From: Eubacteriales bacterium | Lineage (GTDB): Bacteria > Bacillota > Clostridia > Oscillospirales > CAG-272 | Direction of reading: 5' to 3' | Assembly: GCA_045603085.1 (NCBI GenBank) | Contig: JAZULL010000059.1 | Location: 3,585-67,584 of the forward strand | DNA length: 64,000 bases | In this document: positions 8,751 through 64,000 of the stretch, in pieces | How the letters are laid out: each line of letters begins with the position of its first letter | How positions within the stretch are numbered: position 1 is the first letter of the stretch | The notes under the pieces: model-generated | What the model was told of the DNA's origin: nothing | Seen by the model: only the letters and a program-made list of their open reading frames with translations | Database searches by the model: none | Position numbers and translations under genes: made by a program

Positions 8751-8850
8751 TTCGCTTTATACAAAGTGAAGTTATGAGTTTGCTAAACAATCATAACTCA
8801 TAACTCGCCCGCAGGGCGATCATAACTGTGAATCGCTGTGGCGATTCACA
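8751..8850. repeat. Hairpin-linker array, GTTATGA/TCATAAC variant
   Basis: Short hairpins separated by GTTATGA (8771) and TCATAAC (8791, 8798, 8820). The last hairpin (8827-8850) spans the DUF378 stop codon. Confidence 0.65.
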
Positions 8851-20238: not shown

Positions 20239-22045
20239 TTTTTCCCAAACGCGCATCACGGGCGGATTCTGGAAGCAAAAGCAGGCACTTGTGCGCCGTG
20301 TGACCACGGGGGCTGTATACGACCGCTTTGCCGACACCGGCAGAATTGACGCCTTCCGCTTTGACTGGAGAGAGGGGAACCCCAAAAAGCCGCACTTTTT
20401 CTGGGATAGCGACGTGGCCAAGTGGATCGAGGGCGCGGCTTATCAGTTGGCCCTTGCGCCCGATGCAAGGCTGGAAAAGAAGATCGACAGTCTGGTCGAG
20501 CTGATCGAAAAAAATCAGCAGGAAGACGGCTATTTCAACATCTATTTTACCGTCATTGACCCCGCGCACAAGCTGGCGATCAGAGATTGGCACGAGCTGT
20601 ACTGTGCAGGCCACCTTATGGAGGCCGCCGTGGCGTATTTCGAGGCCACGGGCAAGCGCAAGCTCCTTGATTGCATGTGCCGTTATGCCGATTATATTGA
20701 AAAAAGATTCGTCACCGATGCCGACGTGCCGTTCAGGACGCCGGGGCATGAGGAGATCGAGCTTGCGCTGGTGCGGCTTTACGAGTGCACGGGCGAGAAG
20801 CGGTATCTTGCGCTTGCCAAGCATTTTGTGGATGCGCGCGGTTATGATGACGGGCCAATTCCCGATTGGATGCACCCCTCTTACGGTCAGCATCACCTGC
20901 CCGTGCGCGAGCAAACGACTGCCGAGGGGCACGCCGTGCGCGCCATGTATCTGTATTGCGGCATGGCCGACGTTGCCCTGCATACGGGGGATAAGGAGCT
21001 TCAGGCCGCCTGCGAGGCCATCTTTGATAACGTGGCAAGCAAGCGCATGTATATCACGGGCGGTATCGGATCGAGCGGTGCGGGCGAAGCCTTTACCGTG
21101 GATTACGATCTGCCTAACCTGATCTCGTATACCGAATCCTGCGCGGCACTGGCGCTTGCGCTGTTTGCCAACAGAATGCTGCGCTTTGGCGCGGATTCCA
21201 AGTATTCGGACGTGGTTGAGAGAGTGATTTATAACGGCTTTATGTCCTCTCTGTCCTTGGACGGTAAGAGCTTTTTCTATCAGAATCCGCTGGAGATCAT
21301 GCCGCGCATGCACAAGCGTGACGTCAGCGTCAACCATGCAAGCGTCGGCCTGCCGCCCATGCAGCGCAGAGAGGTGTTTGTGTGCTCCTGCTGTCCGCCC
21401 AATATCGTCAGATTCATTCCGTCCATCGCCAACATGCTGTATTCGGATGACGGCGAGGTGATCTACGTGCACCAGTTCATGCAAGGTCTGACCACCGTCG
21501 AGCGTGACGGCAAGATGCTGGTGCTGGAGCAGACGACCAAATATCCCGAGAGCGGCAAGGTGAAAATCAAGCTGACCGGTGGGGATGCCCGCATAGCCGT
21601 CAGAATCCCCGGCTGGTTTGAGGGCTATACCGGTAAGACCGAGAAGGGATATGCATATTTTGACGTCAAGGACGGCGAGGAGCTGGACTTTGACTTTACC
21701 ATGAAGCCGGTCTTTATCGAGGCAAGACCCGAGGTGGTCTTTGACGCGGGCAGATATGCCGTCATGCGCGGCCCCGTGCTGTATTGCATGGAGGGTGTGG
21801 ACAACGGTGCGCTGCTGCGTGATATCAGGCTGGACAGTCGCGCAAGATTCAGATACGGCAAGCACCCGACGCTGGGTGTGCCGCAATTGAGTGTGCGTGC
21901 ATGGAGAACGGTACGCGAAGAGGATGCGCCGCTGTATCGCAGAAAAACACAAAATAAGGAAAAGGTAGAGGCGGTGCTGATCCCGTATTATGCTTTTGCC
22001 AACAGAGGCGAGAGCGAAATGCAGGTGTGGCACTTTGTAGAATAG
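20222..22045 (+). CDS. GH127 beta-L-arabinofuranosidase-like glycoside hydrolase
   Basis: WDSDVAKWIE, HELYCAGHL, GHEEIELAL, GHAVRAMY, YTESCA, CSCCPPN; GGAGG RBS. Confidence 0.9.
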   Translation: MHRTVDFSQTRITGGFWKQKQALVRRVTTGAVYDRFADTGRIDAFRFDWREGNPKKPHFFWDSDVAKWIEGAAYQLALAPDARLEKKIDSLVELIEKNQQEDGYFNIYFTVIDPAHKLAIRDWHELYCAGHLMEAAVAYFEATGKRKLLDCMCRYADYIEKRFVTDADVPFRTPGHEEIELALVRLYECTGEKRYLALAKHFVDARGYDDGPIPDWMHPSYGQHHLPVREQTTAEGHAVRAMYLYCGMADVALHTGDKELQAACEAIFDNVASKRMYITGGIGSSGAGEAFTVDYDLPNLISYTESCAALALALFANRMLRFGADSKYSDVVERVIYNGFMSSLSLDGKSFFYQNPLEIMPRMHKRDVSVNHASVGLPPMQRREVFVCSCCPPNIVRFIPSIANMLYSDDGEVIYVHQFMQGLTTVERDGKMLVLEQTTKYPESGKVKIKLTGGDARIAVRIPGWFEGYTGKTEKGYAYFDVKDGEELDFDFTMKPVFIEARPEVVFDAGRYAVMRGPVLYCMEGVDNGALLRDIRLDSRARFRYGKHPTLGVPQLSVRAWRTVREEDAPLYRRKTQNKEKVEAVLIPYYAFANRGESEMQVWHFVE

Positions 22046-56660: not shown

Positions 56661-56774
56661 TGTCGGCTAACGTCGACAGTGATATTTTGGCTTTGCCAAG
56701 GTGATATTCCGACTGCGTCGGAGTGATATTTGTGCTCCGCACAAGTGATATTCCCCGCACCGATGGTGCGGGGA
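56661..56774. repeat. 22-nt periodic array: GTGATAT linker plus variable hairpin
   Basis: GTGATATT at 56679, 56701, 56723 and 56745, each followed by a different palindrome with a 3-nt loop. Confidence 0.85.
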
Positions 56775-58919: not shown

Positions 58920-59615
58920 ATGGCAAAGATGGGTAAGAAGTATTCCGATAGCGCTAAGCTGATCGAGAAGTCCAGATTGTATGATACCGCAGAAGCTCTT
59001 GCATTGGTATGCCAGACTTCCAAGGCTAAGTTTGACGAGACTGTAGAAGTACACGTCCGTCTGGGTGTTGACTCCCGTCACGCTGACCAGCAGGTCAGAG
59101 GCGCAGTCGTACTGCCCAACGGTACCGGTAAGACCGTAAGAACCCTGGTATTCGCTAAGGGTGACAACGTTCAGGCTGCTATCGATGCAGGTGCTGATTA
59201 CGTTGGCGGCGCTGAGTACGCTGAAAAGATCCAGAAGGAAAACTGGTTCGAGTTTGACGTTGTAATCGCATCCCCCGACATGATGGGCGTTATCGGCCGT
59301 CTGGGTAAGGTTCTGGGTCCTAAGGGCCTGATGCCCTCTCCCAAGGCAGGCACCGTTACCACCGACGTAGCTCGCGCAGTTCGCGAGGCTAAGGCAGGTA
59401 AGATCGAGTACCGTCTTGACAAGACCAACATCATTCACTGCCCCATTGGCAAGGCTTCCTTCGGCCCCGAGAAGCTGCAGGAAAACTTTGACACTCTGCT
59501 GGGTGCCATCATCAAGGCAAAGCCCGCAGCAGCAAAGGGTCAGTATATCAAGAGCTGTGTTGTGGCTTCCACCATGGGCCCCGGCATCAAGATCAACGGC
59601 GCAAAGCTGAGCTGA
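58920..59615 (+). CDS. rplA: 50S ribosomal protein L1
   Basis: [35 protein letters not shown]. Confidence 0.97.
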
Positions 59616-59692: not shown

Positions 59693-59863
59693 GTGATATT
59701 GTTGCATAGCAATTTGTTGCATAGCAACAGTGATATTCTGTTCGCCATGAAACTTGCGAAGCAAATAACACTCACCGCAGGTGAATAACACTGCCGTAGG
59801 CAATATCACTCGCCAAAGGCGAATAGAACTGAATTTTATTCAGATGTTATCTGAATAAAATTC
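59693..59863. repeat. Bipartite inverted hairpin-linker array (GTGATAT... / ...AT(A/A)(T/A)CAC)
   Basis: GTGATATT at 59693 and 59730; AATAACAC at 59764 and 59784; AATATCAC at 59802; hairpins between; terminal 15-bp hairpin over a stop codon. Confidence 0.8.
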
Positions 59864-60722
59864 CATACCCCCAACCGACGCGGCCGCCGGACTTTAAGTG
59901 CTCGACAAACGCGCGGCGCAGGGAGGTATCGGTGGGCAGACGGTCGGGATTGCGCTCGGCAGTGTCAAACAAGCACCAAAGGCTCTCGCCGTCCGAGTGA
60001 TCCCAGGAAAGAATTTCAAATTCCTTCATAAAACGGAGCACGTTGGACCCAACGGATACAAATTCGGTCATGCAGGGGTAGAGCAACCAGGAATGGCACA
60101 CGAAGGGAACCTTTTCTCCTTGCAATTGATCCTTAAAGAATTCCTTGGCGCGGGCAAAGGAGTCCTCGTAAAGCGCAGGCGAGAGCGGCTGTCCCGAGCG
60201 GGGAATATGCATGTTGAGCACCTTGCTCTCTTTGCCAAGGGAGATTCCGTTTTTTTGGTATTCGCGGCCGAAATCCACCACCTCGAATTGCAAGCGGCCC
60301 AGCGCAAAGCGGGTCATTTTGAACCAACCGGGCATCCAGAACGCTACGAACATGCCGCGCACACCGCGCACGAGCTTACATTCCTCCAATTTGTAGCGCA
60401 GATCCAGCATACTGTCATGCCAGATCGCGTCGTCGATTCCGCGCTCGGCATACGTCTTGCGCAAATGCTTGGAAAGGCAGATAAACAGCAACAGATCGGC
60501 GGTATGGTTGTGCACGCCCACCAATCGCGACGCCTGCTTGACCTGCGCGGTCAGGGAATTGTAATCGCAGTCGATATTTGCCTCGTAGGTGGCGACTGCC
60601 TGCTTGAACAGCGCGGCGGCCTCCGGATTTGCCATGATCTTGTCGTAAGCGGCCAGTAGAAAATCGGCGTCGTCGGGGGAGTAGTCAAAGTCCTTGAAAA
60701 ATTTTTGCAAATACGTTTTCAT
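59847..60722 (-). CDS. Acyltransferase-domain protein (DUF5596 + GNAT-like C-terminus), copy 1
   Basis: RFALGRLQFE, NMHIPRSGQPL, FVCHSWLLYP, DTSLRRA; GGGAG RBS. Confidence 0.75.
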   Translation of the reverse strand: MKTYLQKFFKDFDYSPDDADFLLAAYDKIMANPEAAALFKQAVATYEANIDCDYNSLTAQVKQASRLVGVHNHTADLLLFICLSKHLRKTYAERGIDDAIWHDSMLDLRYKLEECKLVRGVRGMFVAFWMPGWFKMTRFALGRLQFEVVDFGREYQKNGISLGKESKVLNMHIPRSGQPLSPALYEDSFARAKEFFKDQLQGEKVPFVCHSWLLYPCMTEFVSVGSNVLRFMKEFEILSWDHSDGESLWCLFDTAERNPDRLPTDTSLRRAFVEHLKSGGRVGWGYGILFR

Positions 60723-60745
60723 AAGTTGCTCCCGAACAGCGTAAA

Positions 60746-60948
60746 GTGATATTATTGCTTCGCAACAGTGATATTTTGGCTTCGCCAAAGTGGTATTGCT
60801 CGGCTACGCCTTGCAGTGGTATTCTATTCGCCCTATAACTCGCGTAGCGAATAACACTTGGACGAAGTCCAAATATCACTGCTATGCAATATCACTCGCC
60901 GCAGGCGAATAGAACTGCATTTTGTTCAGAGTTATCTGAACAAAATGC
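60746..60948. repeat. Bipartite inverted hairpin-linker array, second copy
   Basis: GTG(A/G)TATT at 60746, 60768, 60790 and 60816; ATAACAC/ATATCAC x3; ends ATAGAACTG followed by a 14-bp hairpin over a stop codon. Confidence 0.8.
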
Positions 60949-61810
60949 CAAACCCCCAACCCACTCTTCCGCCGTTTTGCAGGTGCGTGACAAACGCGCG
61001 GCGCAGAGAGGTGTCGGCGGGCAGACGGTCGGGATGACGCTCCATGGTGTCAAACAGACGCCAGAGATCCTCACCGTCGTTGTAGTGGCTGTCCATAATG
61101 GTAAATTCCGAGAGAAATTTGTAGGTGTTGAGGTGCTCGGGCACGAACTTGGCCGTGTCGGGGTAGAGTAGCCACGAGTGGCACACGAAGGGAACGGGGT
61201 CAACACCGACAAAGGTGTCCTTGTAAAACTCCTTGGCGCGGGCAAAGGCGTCCTCGTAAAGCGCTTTCGAGAGCGGTTGGCCGCTGCGGGGAATGTGCAT
61301 GTTGATGGTTTTTGTGCCCTTGGTGACCGAAACGTCTCCAATTTGGTAGTCGTTGTCCATGACGTGGATCTCAAACTGCAATCTTCCCAGCGCAAAGCGG
61401 GTGAGATTGAAAAATCCGGGGAACCAGCCCGCCACAAACGAGCCGCAGATGCCGCAGACAGCACGGCACTCCTCCAGCTTGTAGCGCAGATCCAGCATGG
61501 AGTCGTGCCAGATCTCACGGGGCAAATTCGCTTCGACGTAGCGTTCTCTGAGCTTGCGGGAATAGCAGATAAAGAGCAAAAGCTCGGCCGTGTAGTTGTG
61601 CACGCCCACGGTGTCGCCGGCTTGTCTTGCTTGGTGCATGGCGGTGCCGTAGTCGCAGTTCTGATCTGCATCGTAGGCGGCCAGCGCGGCGGAAAAGAAG
61701 GTGTTCGCCTGCCCGTTTGCTGTGATCTTGTCGTAAGCTGCAAGCAGGACCTCGGCATCCGCCTCGGGATATTCGAATTCCTTAAAAAATTCTATCAGAT
61801 AAAGTTTCAT
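60932..61810 (-). CDS. Acyltransferase-domain protein, copy 2 (tandem paralog)
   Basis: Same motifs as copy 1; AAGGAG RBS. Confidence 0.75.
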   Translation of the reverse strand: MKLYLIEFFKEFEYPEADAEVLLAAYDKITANGQANTFFSAALAAYDADQNCDYGTAMHQARQAGDTVGVHNYTAELLLFICYSRKLRERYVEANLPREIWHDSMLDLRYKLEECRAVCGICGSFVAGWFPGFFNLTRFALGRLQFEIHVMDNDYQIGDVSVTKGTKTINMHIPRSGQPLSKALYEDAFARAKEFYKDTFVGVDPVPFVCHSWLLYPDTAKFVPEHLNTYKFLSEFTIMDSHYNDGEDLWRLFDTMERHPDRLPADTSLRRAFVTHLQNGGRVGWGFGILFR

Positions 61811-61820
61811 AGTAATCTCC

Positions 61821-63185
61821 TTACAGCGCAAAATACTTGCGGATCATATCCGGGATCTGTCCCTTCATGGCGCGCAGGACCTCAGCTGCTCCGGGATCGC
61901 CCGCGACGTATCGGTTCATGTAGTAGCCCTCGGCCTTGCAGGCAAGATCATGCATGGGGAAATAGTTTTCCATCAAGAAGCATGCATATTTTTGCAGTCT
62001 GAAATCTCCAACGAGTCGGTATTCTTTGCTAATGGTGTCCACCGCCACCGAGTATTTGTGCTTGATGGACTCGATTAGCGCGGCCGTGGTGTTTTCGGGC
62101 GCGAACACGATAGTGGAGCAGATCAGAGCGTTGCGGTTGTGCTCGGCAATTGAGCTGTGGCTGTCGGTGCTGCCAACGATGGGATGATCGATCCCCCTCT
62201 GCTTCATTTCGTAGTAAAGAGCGGTCTGGAAGCCGTTGTGCGAGAAAAGATTCTCACCGCCCAGCACCTCAAAGGCGTCGAAGGGGGCTTTTTCGTATAT
62301 GTAGTAGGTGTAATCCTCGGGCAGCTGCATCAGATCCGAGAGCCAGTAGGGGTGCGGGAAAATGCCAAGGCCCTCTGCGGCCTGCACCTGCTCATGGATC
62401 CATTCCAGCACGGCAAAGCTCATGCGCTCCGAGCGCTTTTCGCGGTCCACCTTGGCGGCGCGCTCCTCGATCATAGCGGCGAATTGCTCGTGCGTCATTG
62501 TGTCGGGCGCGTTGCCGTCCATGGAGCGCCATGCGGGATCGTCGCCCGCCTTTTCCTGATTGGGGTTGGGGCTGACCAGCGCATTGATGCTGAATTTGCC
62601 GCCGAAATTGACGTAGTGGACGTCATTGTGGGGCAGATGTATCTCCTCGCCCTGCACGACGTTCAAATCGGTCAGATCCTTCCAAAAGGCCTGCGCCTCA
62701 AGGGAAGGGTAGTAGCGGTGGTGATCGGAAATAACGGTAAAGTCATAGCCGTTGCCGCGATAATTGGCGCAAACCACCTCGGGCGCCTGGCCGCCGTCCG
62801 AGCGGCGGGTGTGCATGTGCAGATCTCCGCGGTACGGGTATTTTCCCGCCATATCATCGGCCAGCGAATAGACCGATAACTGCACGCTGTGGCGCGCGTC
62901 GGGGCTGTCGCAGATGCGGATATAGTGCTCGCCCTCGCCCTTGAAATGGGCAGTCAGGCGCAGACAGCCGTCGGCGTCGGGAGTGACAGTCAGTATAGAA
63001 CGGCCTGTGTATTCGGGATAGGTGTGGGGAGAGCCCTCGTTGACCTTGCAGATGCGGACTGTATAGGTGTGATCGGGGGTGAATGCGGCCTGCCAACCAA
63101 GTGGCTGAATGGTCACGGTGGTTTCCCGGTCTCCAAGGAACACCTTGGGATAAATATCGTAATTGTAAAGAGTCGGATGCATCAT
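61821..63185 (-). CDS. PHP-domain metallophosphoesterase-like protein
   Basis: GDLHMHTRRSDG, ISDH, GEE, HPYW, GSTDSH. Confidence 0.8.
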   Translation of the reverse strand: MMHPTLYNYDIYPKVFLGDRETTVTIQPLGWQAAFTPDHTYTVRICKVNEGSPHTYPEYTGRSILTVTPDADGCLRLTAHFKGEGEHYIRICDSPDARHSVQLSVYSLADDMAGKYPYRGDLHMHTRRSDGGQAPEVVCANYRGNGYDFTVISDHHRYYPSLEAQAFWKDLTDLNVVQGEEIHLPHNDVHYVNFGGKFSINALVSPNPNQEKAGDDPAWRSMDGNAPDTMTHEQFAAMIEERAAKVDREKRSERMSFAVLEWIHEQVQAAEGLGIFPHPYWLSDLMQLPEDYTYYIYEKAPFDAFEVLGGENLFSHNGFQTALYYEMKQRGIDHPIVGSTDSHSSIAEHNRNALICSTIVFAPENTTAALIESIKHKYSVAVDTISKEYRLVGDFRLQKYACFLMENYFPMHDLACKAEGYYMNRYVAGDPGAAEVLRAMKGQIPDMIRKYFAL

Positions 63186-63288: not shown

Positions 63289-64000
63289 TTATTGTGCGCT
63301 TACTTTGGGCGCAAGCAGTCGGCGGCACAGTTTGTAGAGATGATATGCGCCGAGGGTGAAGAGCATGTCAAGACAGGTCACGATGATGACGTAAAGGATC
63401 TGCGTCGGCCAGTATCCGATCAGGCCGTGCATCATCAGCCGCACGTTTTCCAGAGGGGGAATGTTGCATTGATAGAGGTTGTTGAAGTTGGTTTTCAGGA
63501 CGTGCGAGACGATGGCGGCGACCACGCAGTATCCGCCGATAAAGAGCACGGGCGGCTTCCAATCGCCCGTTTGGGGCTCGAACACGTTCAGCGCCACCAT
63601 CAGCATAAAGGCGAGCATGGCAAGATTGTGGAAGGTGACCGTGTGGAATGCGAAAAAGCTGTTGAAATAATTCTCAATATCCCACGCGCTGTAGATCAGG
63701 GAGGGGTAGATGGCGGTCAGGGTAAAGACAGCGGTGGTCAGCCCGACGGCAATGCTTGCCACAATACGCTGATGCTTGCCGCGCCAGAAGGCAAAGGCGG
63801 GCAGGGAAAACAGCACAAGCGAGCAGAAATGCAGGGGGATGTGATAGAGATCGTACCCTCTTGCAAAGGAAAAGGTCTGCTTGAGAATTTCCAGCAGTAC
63901 CAGAATGCCCGCCACGACCTGCAGGGGAATCATGCGCACGCGCAGGGACTTGTTGCCAAGCCACAGCCGAAGCGCCAGCGAGATGATCGCCATGACCGCC
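63289..64000 (-). CDS. YwaF/TMEM164-family membrane protein (5' end probably outside window)
   Basis: Multi-TM; LEILKQ, HIPLHFCS, TFH, TNFNNL motifs. Confidence 0.7.
   Translation of the reverse strand, partial: AVMAIISLALRLWLGNKSLRVRMIPLQVVAGILVLLEILKQTFSFARGYDLYHIPLHFCSLVLFSLPAFAFWRGKHQRIVASIAVGLTTAVFTLTAIYPSLIYSAWDIENYFNSFFAFHTVTFHNLAMLAFMLMVALNVFEPQTGDWKPPVLFIGGYCVVAAIVSHVLKTNFNNLYQCNIPPLENVRLMMHGLIGYWPTQILYVIIVTCLDMLFTLGAYHLYKLCRRLLAPKVSAQ

Follow-up and report, generated by a model that had tools for sequence, protein, structure and literature searches.

This study concerns a 64,000-nt stretch of a Eubacteriales genome (GenBank assembly GCA_045603085.1, contig JAZULL010000059.1, positions 3,585 to 67,584 of the forward strand; hereafter the window), and within it two hairpin-bearing elements, each placed at the 3′ end of one of two paralogous N-acyltransferase genes, NAT1 and NAT2. 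The two NAT elements are copies of a many-copy, gene-less hairpin repeat, and their arms are the catalogued orphan RNA motif Gut-1 (Rfam RF01706). We call the repeating part, in which small hairpins alternate with constant 7-nt linkers, the ladder; it consists of a proximal arm (arm A), a core and a distal arm (arm B), and at the NAT genes it is preceded by a larger hairpin, T1, that includes the stop codon. The genes and parts of the locus, followed by two further arrays in the window, are these:

58920-59615, plus strand: rplA, the gene 5′ of the NAT and element region on that strand.
59693-59736, minus strand: distal arm (arm B) of element 1, read from the sequence as 2 linkers around a 15-nt tandem duplication of half a hairpin.
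59737-59764, minus strand: core of element 1, holding TCTGTTCGCC, which is complementary to where arm A starts; 82% identical to 60814-60858.
59760-59831, minus strand: proximal arm (arm A) of element 1, with 3 hairpins; RF01706 match of 49.6 bits, E 6.2e-8, model positions 1-77.
59831-59863, minus strand: T1 hairpin of element 1, whose two 15-nt arms are 100% complementary; NAT1 supplies the outer one with its last codons, and its stop codon (59847-59849) is at the loop.
59847-60722, minus strand: NAT1, an N-acyltransferase with NAT_N and GNAT_C domains (Pfam E 9e-19 and 2.9e-38).
60746-60822, minus strand: distal arm (arm B) of element 2, its 3 hairpins set among 4 linkers; Gut-1 is matched weakly on the plus strand at 60708-60801 (29.7 bits).
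60823-60850, minus strand: core of element 2, holding TTCTATTCGCC, complementary to 60904-60914 (11 nt, 100%).
60846-60917, minus strand: proximal arm (arm A) of element 2; RF01706 match of 41.2 bits, E 8.5e-6.
60917-60948, minus strand: T1 hairpin of element 2; each arm is 14 nt long (100% complementary), the outer one being made of the final codons of NAT2, whose stop codon (60932-60934) falls within the loop.
60932-61810, minus strand: NAT2, the NAT1 paralogue, with NAT_N and GNAT_C domains; its probable start, at 61810, is placed by alignment with NAT1.
56677-56756, plus strand: a solo Gut-1 array of 4 linkers, between the stop codon of a gene and the terminator of that gene; RF01706 match of 52.2 bits.
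8771-8850, no strand assigned: a two-armed array of a sister family, with the linker GTTATGA/TCATAAC; read from the sequence.

Read on the plus strand, element 1 has forward linkers (GTGATAT) at 59693 and 59730 and, beyond the core, reverse linkers at 59765 and 59785 (ATAACAC) and at 59803 (ATATCAC), which are followed by the hairpins TCACC-gca-GGTGA, TGCC-gta-GGCA and TCGCC-aaa-GGCGA and then by ATAGAACTG, up to position 59831. Element 2 has four forward linkers (60746, 60768, 60790 and 60816), the core, three reverse linkers (60851, 60873 and 60889) and the right end TCGCC-gca-GGCGA-ATAGAACTG, whose last position is 60917. In the NAT sense, the order is T1, the words AGTTCTAT-TCGCCnnnGGCGA and two further hairpins joined through GTGATAT/GTGTTAT (these making up arm A), the core, and an inverted arm B of 2 to 4 units with ATATCAC/ATACCAC linkers. 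An earlier note, made from the letters of this DNA alone, had described two inverted arms of 7-nt linkers and small, dissimilar hairpins, and this plan is confirmed in both elements by sequence, enrichment and fold scores, with the amendment that element 1 has no clean series of hairpins in its left arm but a 15-nt duplication with 2 linkers around it. Just outside the limits that it gave, each element also has a perfect 14-15 bp hairpin that overlaps the gene stop. Its remark that stem sequences vary while pairing is preserved can be seen from unit to unit, and folding of the whole element is indeed allowed by the inverted linkers, since the two arms bear reverse-complement linkers and the minimum-free-energy fold pairs arm with arm. 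A DNA contig from a public run (X1) carries a third 15-nt copy (TTGTTGCATAGCAAT) after 59698 in the distal arm of element 1; the unit number of this arm thus varies within the population.

The hairpin-linker pattern was held against several expectations. In the window, GTGRTAT occurs 42 times versus an expected 9.8 ± 3.0, a count reached by none of 100 shuffles. When the whole genome was scanned for any 7-mer followed by a hairpin of at least 5 pairs and the same 7-mer again, GTGATAT/ATATCAC came out on top with 87-91 units, and unrelated 7-mers in this unbiased scan scored 3 at most. Folding of elements 1 and 2 gave z scores of -7.4 and -8.3, with 0 of 200 shuffles equal to either.

At the curated Rfam thresholds, where the cut-off for Gut-1 is 50 bits, the sole Rfam match in the window is Gut-1 at the solo array (56677-56756, 52.2 bits). 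With E-value reporting, sub-threshold arms are recovered as well, namely arm A in element 1 (49.6 bits) and, in element 2, both arm A (41.2 bits) and, on the other strand, arm B (29.7 bits); their alignments span the whole model from position 1 to 77, and the three stems are all formed. The earlier note had supposed that the repeat system was undescribed, and this must be given up because the arms are Gut-1, a known family. A literature search, with subscription journals outside its reach, found no paper treating Gut-1 as a repeat or mobile element, and what is new relative to the searched literature is the composite picture, in which Gut-1 forms the arm of an insertion-polymorphic repeat that is associated with terminators and has linker alleles.

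The genome of the window (2.68 Mb in 143 contigs, 82% complete) holds 61 Gut-1 matches at E <= 0.001 (150 of 284 candidates having been scored), 22 of which are above the cut-off, and by a strict regular expression there are 76 arrays, which group into 58 clusters, 13 of these being convergent two-armed pairs. On both counts the repeat is abundant and dispersed, as the earlier note had it. The same note's figure of four copies in 64 kb comes down to three Gut-1 copies: the array at 56.7 kb is of the same family, and the array at 8.8 kb belongs to a sister family, because its linker is GTTATGA and Rfam gives it no Gut-1 match even at E <= 10. Many of the Gut-1 matches lie within about 100 nt of a contig end, and six identical Gut-1 arms sit at contig ends. 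Because the ladder repeats terminate many contigs, they are part of why these genome bins are fragmented.

Alignment of 19 two-armed copies yields a canonical form of about 360 nt, in which T1 and the ladder (arm A, core and arm B) are followed by a second large hairpin (T2) and then by a conserved tail of about 125 nt. The canonical T1 is GGCGTGATACTC-loop-GAGTATCACGCC, or GGGGAGATACTCC..., T2 is AGAGAGAG...CTCTCTCT, and the tail ends in ...CCGATAAGGACATCACCCA; with junctions read by eye, the right end of the full form, ...CTCCGATAAGGACATCACCCA, is an imperfect inverted copy of the left arm and loop of T1. The copies in the window are short forms that begin right at the stop codon and consist of T1, arm A, core and arm B only; they have neither the canonical T1, T2 and tail nor either inverted end of the full form. 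At five loci with full copies, Rfam reports Gut-1 alone, T2 and the tail matching nothing. An arm-less chassis, in which T2 would follow T1 directly, was found in 0 of 81 family genomes, a weak negative given the narrow pattern. On one contig of the window genome (C40), near-identical tandem ladder copies at 20310 and 20664 stand 354 nt apart, each with its own T1 of the GGCGTTGTGTTCC type; and at C28:37920-37981, C122, C25, C39 and C63 of the same genome, arm B is followed by a conserved CTCTTGCTTTCTCTGC-N-TATAAT, which resembles an outward -35/-10 promoter.

Among 41 related genomes, 31 have Gut-1 matches (congeners 15/15, family genomes 22/24, other families of the order 8/16), and the motif is patchy across the order. 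The exact arm-A pattern is found at 110 loci or more, in bins labelled Oscillospiraceae, Eubacteriales, Clostridia, Ruminococcus and Faecousia, the sources being goat, sheep, deer and cattle gut and others. Among the matches listed, a perfect or near-perfect hairpin stands directly before arm A in 101 of 107, and of these 101, 72 are of the GGCGTGATACTC type, 13 of the GGGGAGATACTCC type, and the remainder unique.

At the NAT genes, the hairpin before arm A joins coding to non-coding DNA. The outer arm of T1 consists of the gene's own coding sequence (...G I L F R stop), the same codons being present in genomes without the element, and the Pfam GNAT_C match extends to residue 289 of 291. The inner arm, among the loci read, is present in 5/5 genomes with the ladder versus 0/7 without. 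Over 8 NAT-gene sequences (7 distinct), all 98 cells of the 14 pairs are standard, and 5 pairs have changed on both sides (12 cells), with one pair showing U-G in the mRNA sense. The covariation score was reached by 0 of 500 shuffles, and slid registers fall to 27-43% paired. Given these compensatory changes, the failure of any shuffle to equal them and the collapse of the slid registers, the pairing between codons and non-coding DNA in T1 is actively kept. A simple consensus scan flags both T1 hairpins as terminator-like, with 14-15 pairs and the tail AGTTCTATTC. As to the origin of T1, its inner arm may have been made at insertion, or the ladder may have landed beside a pre-existing hairpin. 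A second locus with a stop-codon hairpin (C72), where the hairpin co-varies between the window genome and G008, yielded no empty site and is silent on how such a hairpin arose. A stop-codon hairpin kept by compensatory change is a new detail of the NAT locus, and since the hairpin is so kept and the same gene pair occurs with and without the element, a clean natural experiment, a role in termination or mRNA stability is directly testable.

Copies of the full form sit within rho-independent terminators, in the loop of the hairpin. Among 53 copies from other species with enough flank, 27 stand between two complementary halves (an exact complement of the left flank, of at least 9 nt, found 120-720 nt rightward), versus 5.6 in mismatched locus pairs. 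Most of the 27 read as A-tract, stem half, element, other stem half and T-tract, and the insert lengths cluster at 357-380 nt. In the window genome six cases are clear, the complements measuring 11-16 nt. In one congener (G002), a full copy of about 350 nt occupies the loop of the rplA terminator, which is intact in the other 10 genomes read. TT is found on both sides in 11 junctions read by eye, which could reflect a 2-bp duplication or simply a T-rich loop. At another locus (L080), the ladder comes right after a complete terminator hairpin.

The earlier note had proposed checks for insertion polymorphism and for a bias toward gene 3′ ends, and both are present. At orthologous congener sites, element 2 is found at 2/14 loci, element 1 at 5/12 and the copy in the rplA terminator at 1/11. 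For orientation, 76 loci of other species with 148 candidate frames were taken, and Pfam decided the left neighbor in 43; in 36 of these, the left neighbor ends at T1 in the arm-A sense, and in 7 it points away. Orientation by longest open frame or by a codon-usage score had been tried and was abandoned for Pfam adjudication, the two reaching only 216/400 and 155/233 in validation, because long antisense frames are common.

The rplA-NAT1 intergenic region is an insertion hot spot. In G014 (L036), there are two copies of the right half of the rplA terminator, of which the second comes after about 130 nt that end in the tail end ...CCGATAAGAACATCACCCA, and this arrangement looks like the scar of a partly deleted insertion. 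Another, unrelated element, of about 350-1000 nt, with inverted ends GATGAAAGTTTTTGATCGACC... and ending 6-8 nt from the NAT1 stop, occupies the site of element 1 in six genomes (G009, G006, G007, G010, G004 and G012; loci L034, L035, L038, L040, L044 and L048), that is, in 6/7 of those without element 1.

The distribution of the elements among congeners also bears on the history of the gene pair, for the earlier note had suggested that the repeat may also have promoted the duplication of the gene in tandem. All 14 of the congener loci that were read have the NAT2-NAT1 pair. Element 2 is found only in the window genome and G001, and the 12 genomes without it have 2-40 nt from the NAT2 stop to the NAT1 start, with no remnant. 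The gene pair is thus older than element 2, and the suggestion falls. We regard it as extremely improbable that the elements were duplicated passively with the NAT gene, or that they caused its duplication: the 1086-nt direct-repeat spacing common to arm A, core and gene end speaks for such an account, but the empty junctions would demand 12 independent precise deletions, and the NAT proteins are about 61% identical (179 identical residues over about 292 aligned) versus 86-90% for T1 plus the arm-A end.

The 3′ end of NAT2 reads CG(C/T) TGA in 12/12 genomes without element 2 and AGA TAA, the NAT1 type, in 2/2 with it. Over arm A and core, element 2 of the window genome is 89% identical to element 1 of G013 and to element 1 of G001, and the two G001 elements are 90% alike; element 1 of the window genome has diverged to 77-84%. 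Element 1, with its T1, is present in 5 of 12 genomes: it has both arms in the window genome, G013 and G001, and in G014 and G002 it has one arm and a core that has collapsed; the other 7 genomes read do not have it. Because NAT2 has NAT1-type codons where element 2 is present, and because identity is 89-90%, element 2 was probably copied from the NAT1 end together with element 1. In such a history, element 1 would have entered first, at the 3′ end of NAT1, and ectopic recombination would then have copied element 2, along with the last two codons of NAT1, onto the homologous end of NAT2, an event that would date to the lineage of the window genome and G001. We infer the reverse of the earlier idea: it was paralogy that helped the repeat to duplicate. 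Directly upstream of NAT2 lies a 454-aa open frame (61821-63185, minus strand) with no Pfam match, and the next gene beyond it (63289-63993) is of the TMEM164 family.

Strand-specific features are found in the stems as well. Counting each distinct unit once and reading on the arm-A strand, the non-Watson-Crick pairs of arm B are 19 G-T versus 4 A-C (117 units), and those of arm A are 3 versus 3 (46 units). Pair bias and orientation fit a folded single strand, RNA or DNA, in the sense of the upstream gene, and they cannot separate transcription from replication-strand effects. A good part of this evidence could also be claimed for a different account, in which the arrays are a host-functional structured RNA, either a small RNA or a 3′-untranslated-region module that ends or protects the upstream mRNA, and have spread by usefulness and not by mobility. 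The sense orientation at 36 of 43 loci, the excess of G-T over A-C on that strand, the compensatory maintenance of T1 and its terminator-like character, and the position of solo arrays between stop codon and terminator all speak for a host RNA. Such an RNA, however, should not be insertion-polymorphic among congeners, lie inside split terminators or exist as near-identical copies that break the assembly, and the 7 antisense loci, as well as the occurrence of both motif orientations on one transcript, are awkward for it. We therefore hold a purely host-functional RNA to be unlikely.

The modal linker spacing is 22 nt, and GTGATAT is not the only linker in the window genome: further ladders use GTTATGA (27-29 units), GTGAAAT, GCGATAT, GTGTTAT and ATGAAAT. 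Where arms adjoin, the linkers are exact reverse complements in 13 cases, spread over 4 linker families, while a further 5 cases nearly match within their family and 1 is mixed; and one and the same frame of T1, T2 and tail bears GTGATAT, GTTATGA or GTGAAGT arms. That the linkers change alike on both arms supports arm-to-arm pairing, or one sequence-specific reader per family. Among individual loci of the window genome, full copies of the GTTATGA family, at C33:23224-23650 and also on C65, share the frame of the GTGATAT family, and a third linker variant, GTGAAGT/ACTTCAC, is found on C130. The constant 7-mer, its spacing of 22 nt and the matching of linker alleles between arms could also mean that the arrays are double-stranded DNA binding platforms, akin to iterons or transposon ends, with a protein that would recognize the 7-mer on either arm at intervals of 22 bp, equal to two helical turns. 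This is very unlikely, since the spacers are palindromes in which pairing and not sequence is kept, the G-T bias suggests a folded single strand, and no candidate protein is known. Three other identities were considered and dropped: a CRISPR-like array, the units being 22 nt long with palindromic spacers and no repeat-spacer logic; an integron attC site, the linkers being direct rather than inverted around each hairpin; and, for the linker words, DnaA boxes, from whose consensus we take them to be one base off.

A further check proposed in the earlier note, for a co-occurring transposase or reverse transcriptase, came out negative, none of the five families profiled tracking the repeat. Y1_Tnp (PF01797), the domain of RAYT and IS200-type transposases, has no match in the window genome, at its 82% completeness, and does not track the repeat among the 41 relatives: G027, G036 and G015 have 29-34 Gut-1 matches and no Y1_Tnp, and G016 has Y1_Tnp and 0 Gut-1 matches. 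IS110, rve, RVT_1 and DDE_Tnp_1 are each missing from at least 3 of five high-copy genomes. Within the window genome, paired element ends are only 308-420 nt apart, and a loose search for more distant ends, such as an autonomous partner would have, returned only noise. The distribution of Y1_Tnp makes it very improbable that the ladders are a repetitive extragenic palindrome (REP) or REPIN system moved by RAYT, a Y1 HUH transposase, even though the inverted pairs of palindromic units at high copy in intergenic DNA speak for such a system and the strand-specific features fit a single-stranded DNA mechanism. The stems, too, differ from unit to unit, only linkers and pairing being conserved, and eight loci of relatives with RAYT-like genes (251-337 aa) have no ladder units, T1 or tail motifs, the five read with their flanks carrying a different palindrome of the GTAACAGGGGAC type. 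Five loci with RAYT-like Y1 genes of 257-337 aa (L170-L174; G009, G001, G004 and G013) have a C-terminal helix-turn-helix-like tail and palindromes of their own (GTAACAGGGGACGG type), and look like a classical REP-RAYT pair unrelated to the ladders.

Taken together, the best explanation, to which we assign a probability of about 0.7, is that the NAT elements are short-form copies of the Gut-1 hairpin ladder, a gene-less, insertion-polymorphic family of uncultured gut Oscillospiraceae and other Clostridia. In the mechanism that we propose for it, the ladder would act as a folded single strand in the sense of the upstream gene; T1 with its U-rich tail would serve as a 3′-end or terminator hairpin that makes insertions tolerable; and the constant linkers would be the recognition words of a putative mobilizing factor.

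Several observations weigh against this explanation. No mobilizing gene was found, none of the five families tested tracking the repeat or being common to the 5 high-copy genomes, and G027, 98% complete and with 34 Gut-1 matches, has no Y1_Tnp, IS110, rve, RVT_1 or DDE_Tnp_1; the absence of a transposase is weak evidence, however, because metagenome bins often lose repeated genes and transposase contigs. The window copies, having neither of the inverted ends that mark the full form, could be remnants that no longer move. Elements 1 and 2 of the window genome are only 77% alike over arm A and core, and dispersed copies match each of them at 82-90%, so that the two may have been inserted independently at two similar target sites. 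The orientation is biased and not absolute, given the antisense loci, and the imbalance of G-T and A-C could in part be strand-biased mutation. A function at the transcript level, finally, is putative: the contigs of two metatranscriptome runs cover rplA and a piece of NAT2 and not the elements, which is neutral either way.

A bolder version of the mobile-element explanation, rather unlikely in our judgment, would see in the ladder itself, both arms with their core, the active unit of structure-guided mobile DNA of a new kind, which lands at or in gene-end hairpins and, where there is no hairpin, builds one by an inverted copy of the last codons of its host gene. The linker alleles would then be address words of putative cognate factors, and Gut-1 would represent selfish elements with a transposition chemistry outside the known transposase families. 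Should there be a dedicated mobilizer, its preference for the hairpins of terminators would amount to a new principle of targeting. On firmer ground, an orphan Rfam family gains a genomic identity, as the arm of a dispersed gene-3′-end repeat in abundant, uncultured gut Clostridia, and we recommend caution: Gut-1 matches are not to be counted as small-RNA genes.

The resemblance to REPIN and BIME elements drawn in the earlier note is fair at the level of architecture, that is, of inverted arms of palindromic units. The ladder shares with the REP, BIME and REPIN sequences of proteobacteria the short palindromic units in direct and inverted order, the mosaic intergenic repeats, the location near gene 3′ ends and the variable unit number. 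In the REPs of proteobacteria, however, the palindrome sequence itself is conserved, whereas the ladder conserves only the 7-nt linker and the pairing, and no cognate RAYT tracks it. Like miniature inverted-repeat transposable elements (MITEs) and the pneumococcal BOX, the family is small, gene-less and insertion-polymorphic, with what look like imperfect terminal inverted repeats in the full form and with variable inner modules; unlike them, it has no autonomous partner that we could find, its target is a hairpin loop and not a sequence, and its copies in the window are without terminal repeats. IS1397 and ISKpn1 insert into the loops of REPs, and group IIC introns home beside terminator hairpins, and both kinds of element encode their own enzyme. 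The ladder is like them in that the target is chosen by hairpin structure at gene ends, and unlike them in that rve and reverse transcriptase genes are missing from most of the high-copy ladder genomes tested.

The closest likeness is to Gut-1 itself. In the portions of Weinberg et al. 2010 (PMC2864571) consulted here, Gut-1 is a likely non-coding RNA, not cis-regulatory and from "Human gut only", and the portion of the supplement consulted has 43 representatives, with seed lines that start CAGUUAUAUUCGCC. As far as these portions and the Rfam entry go, the window elements agree with Gut-1 in their three tandem hairpins, in the GUGAAAU-type linker, in gut origin and in their 5′ words (CAGUUAUAUUCGCC in the seed, CAGTTCTATTCGCC in the window). 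They differ from Gut-1 as filed there, a stand-alone small RNA known from human-gut sequence only, in being the arm of a two-armed repeat with tens of copies per genome, which has end hairpins, sits in or beside terminators and is found in ruminant-gut genome bins as well.

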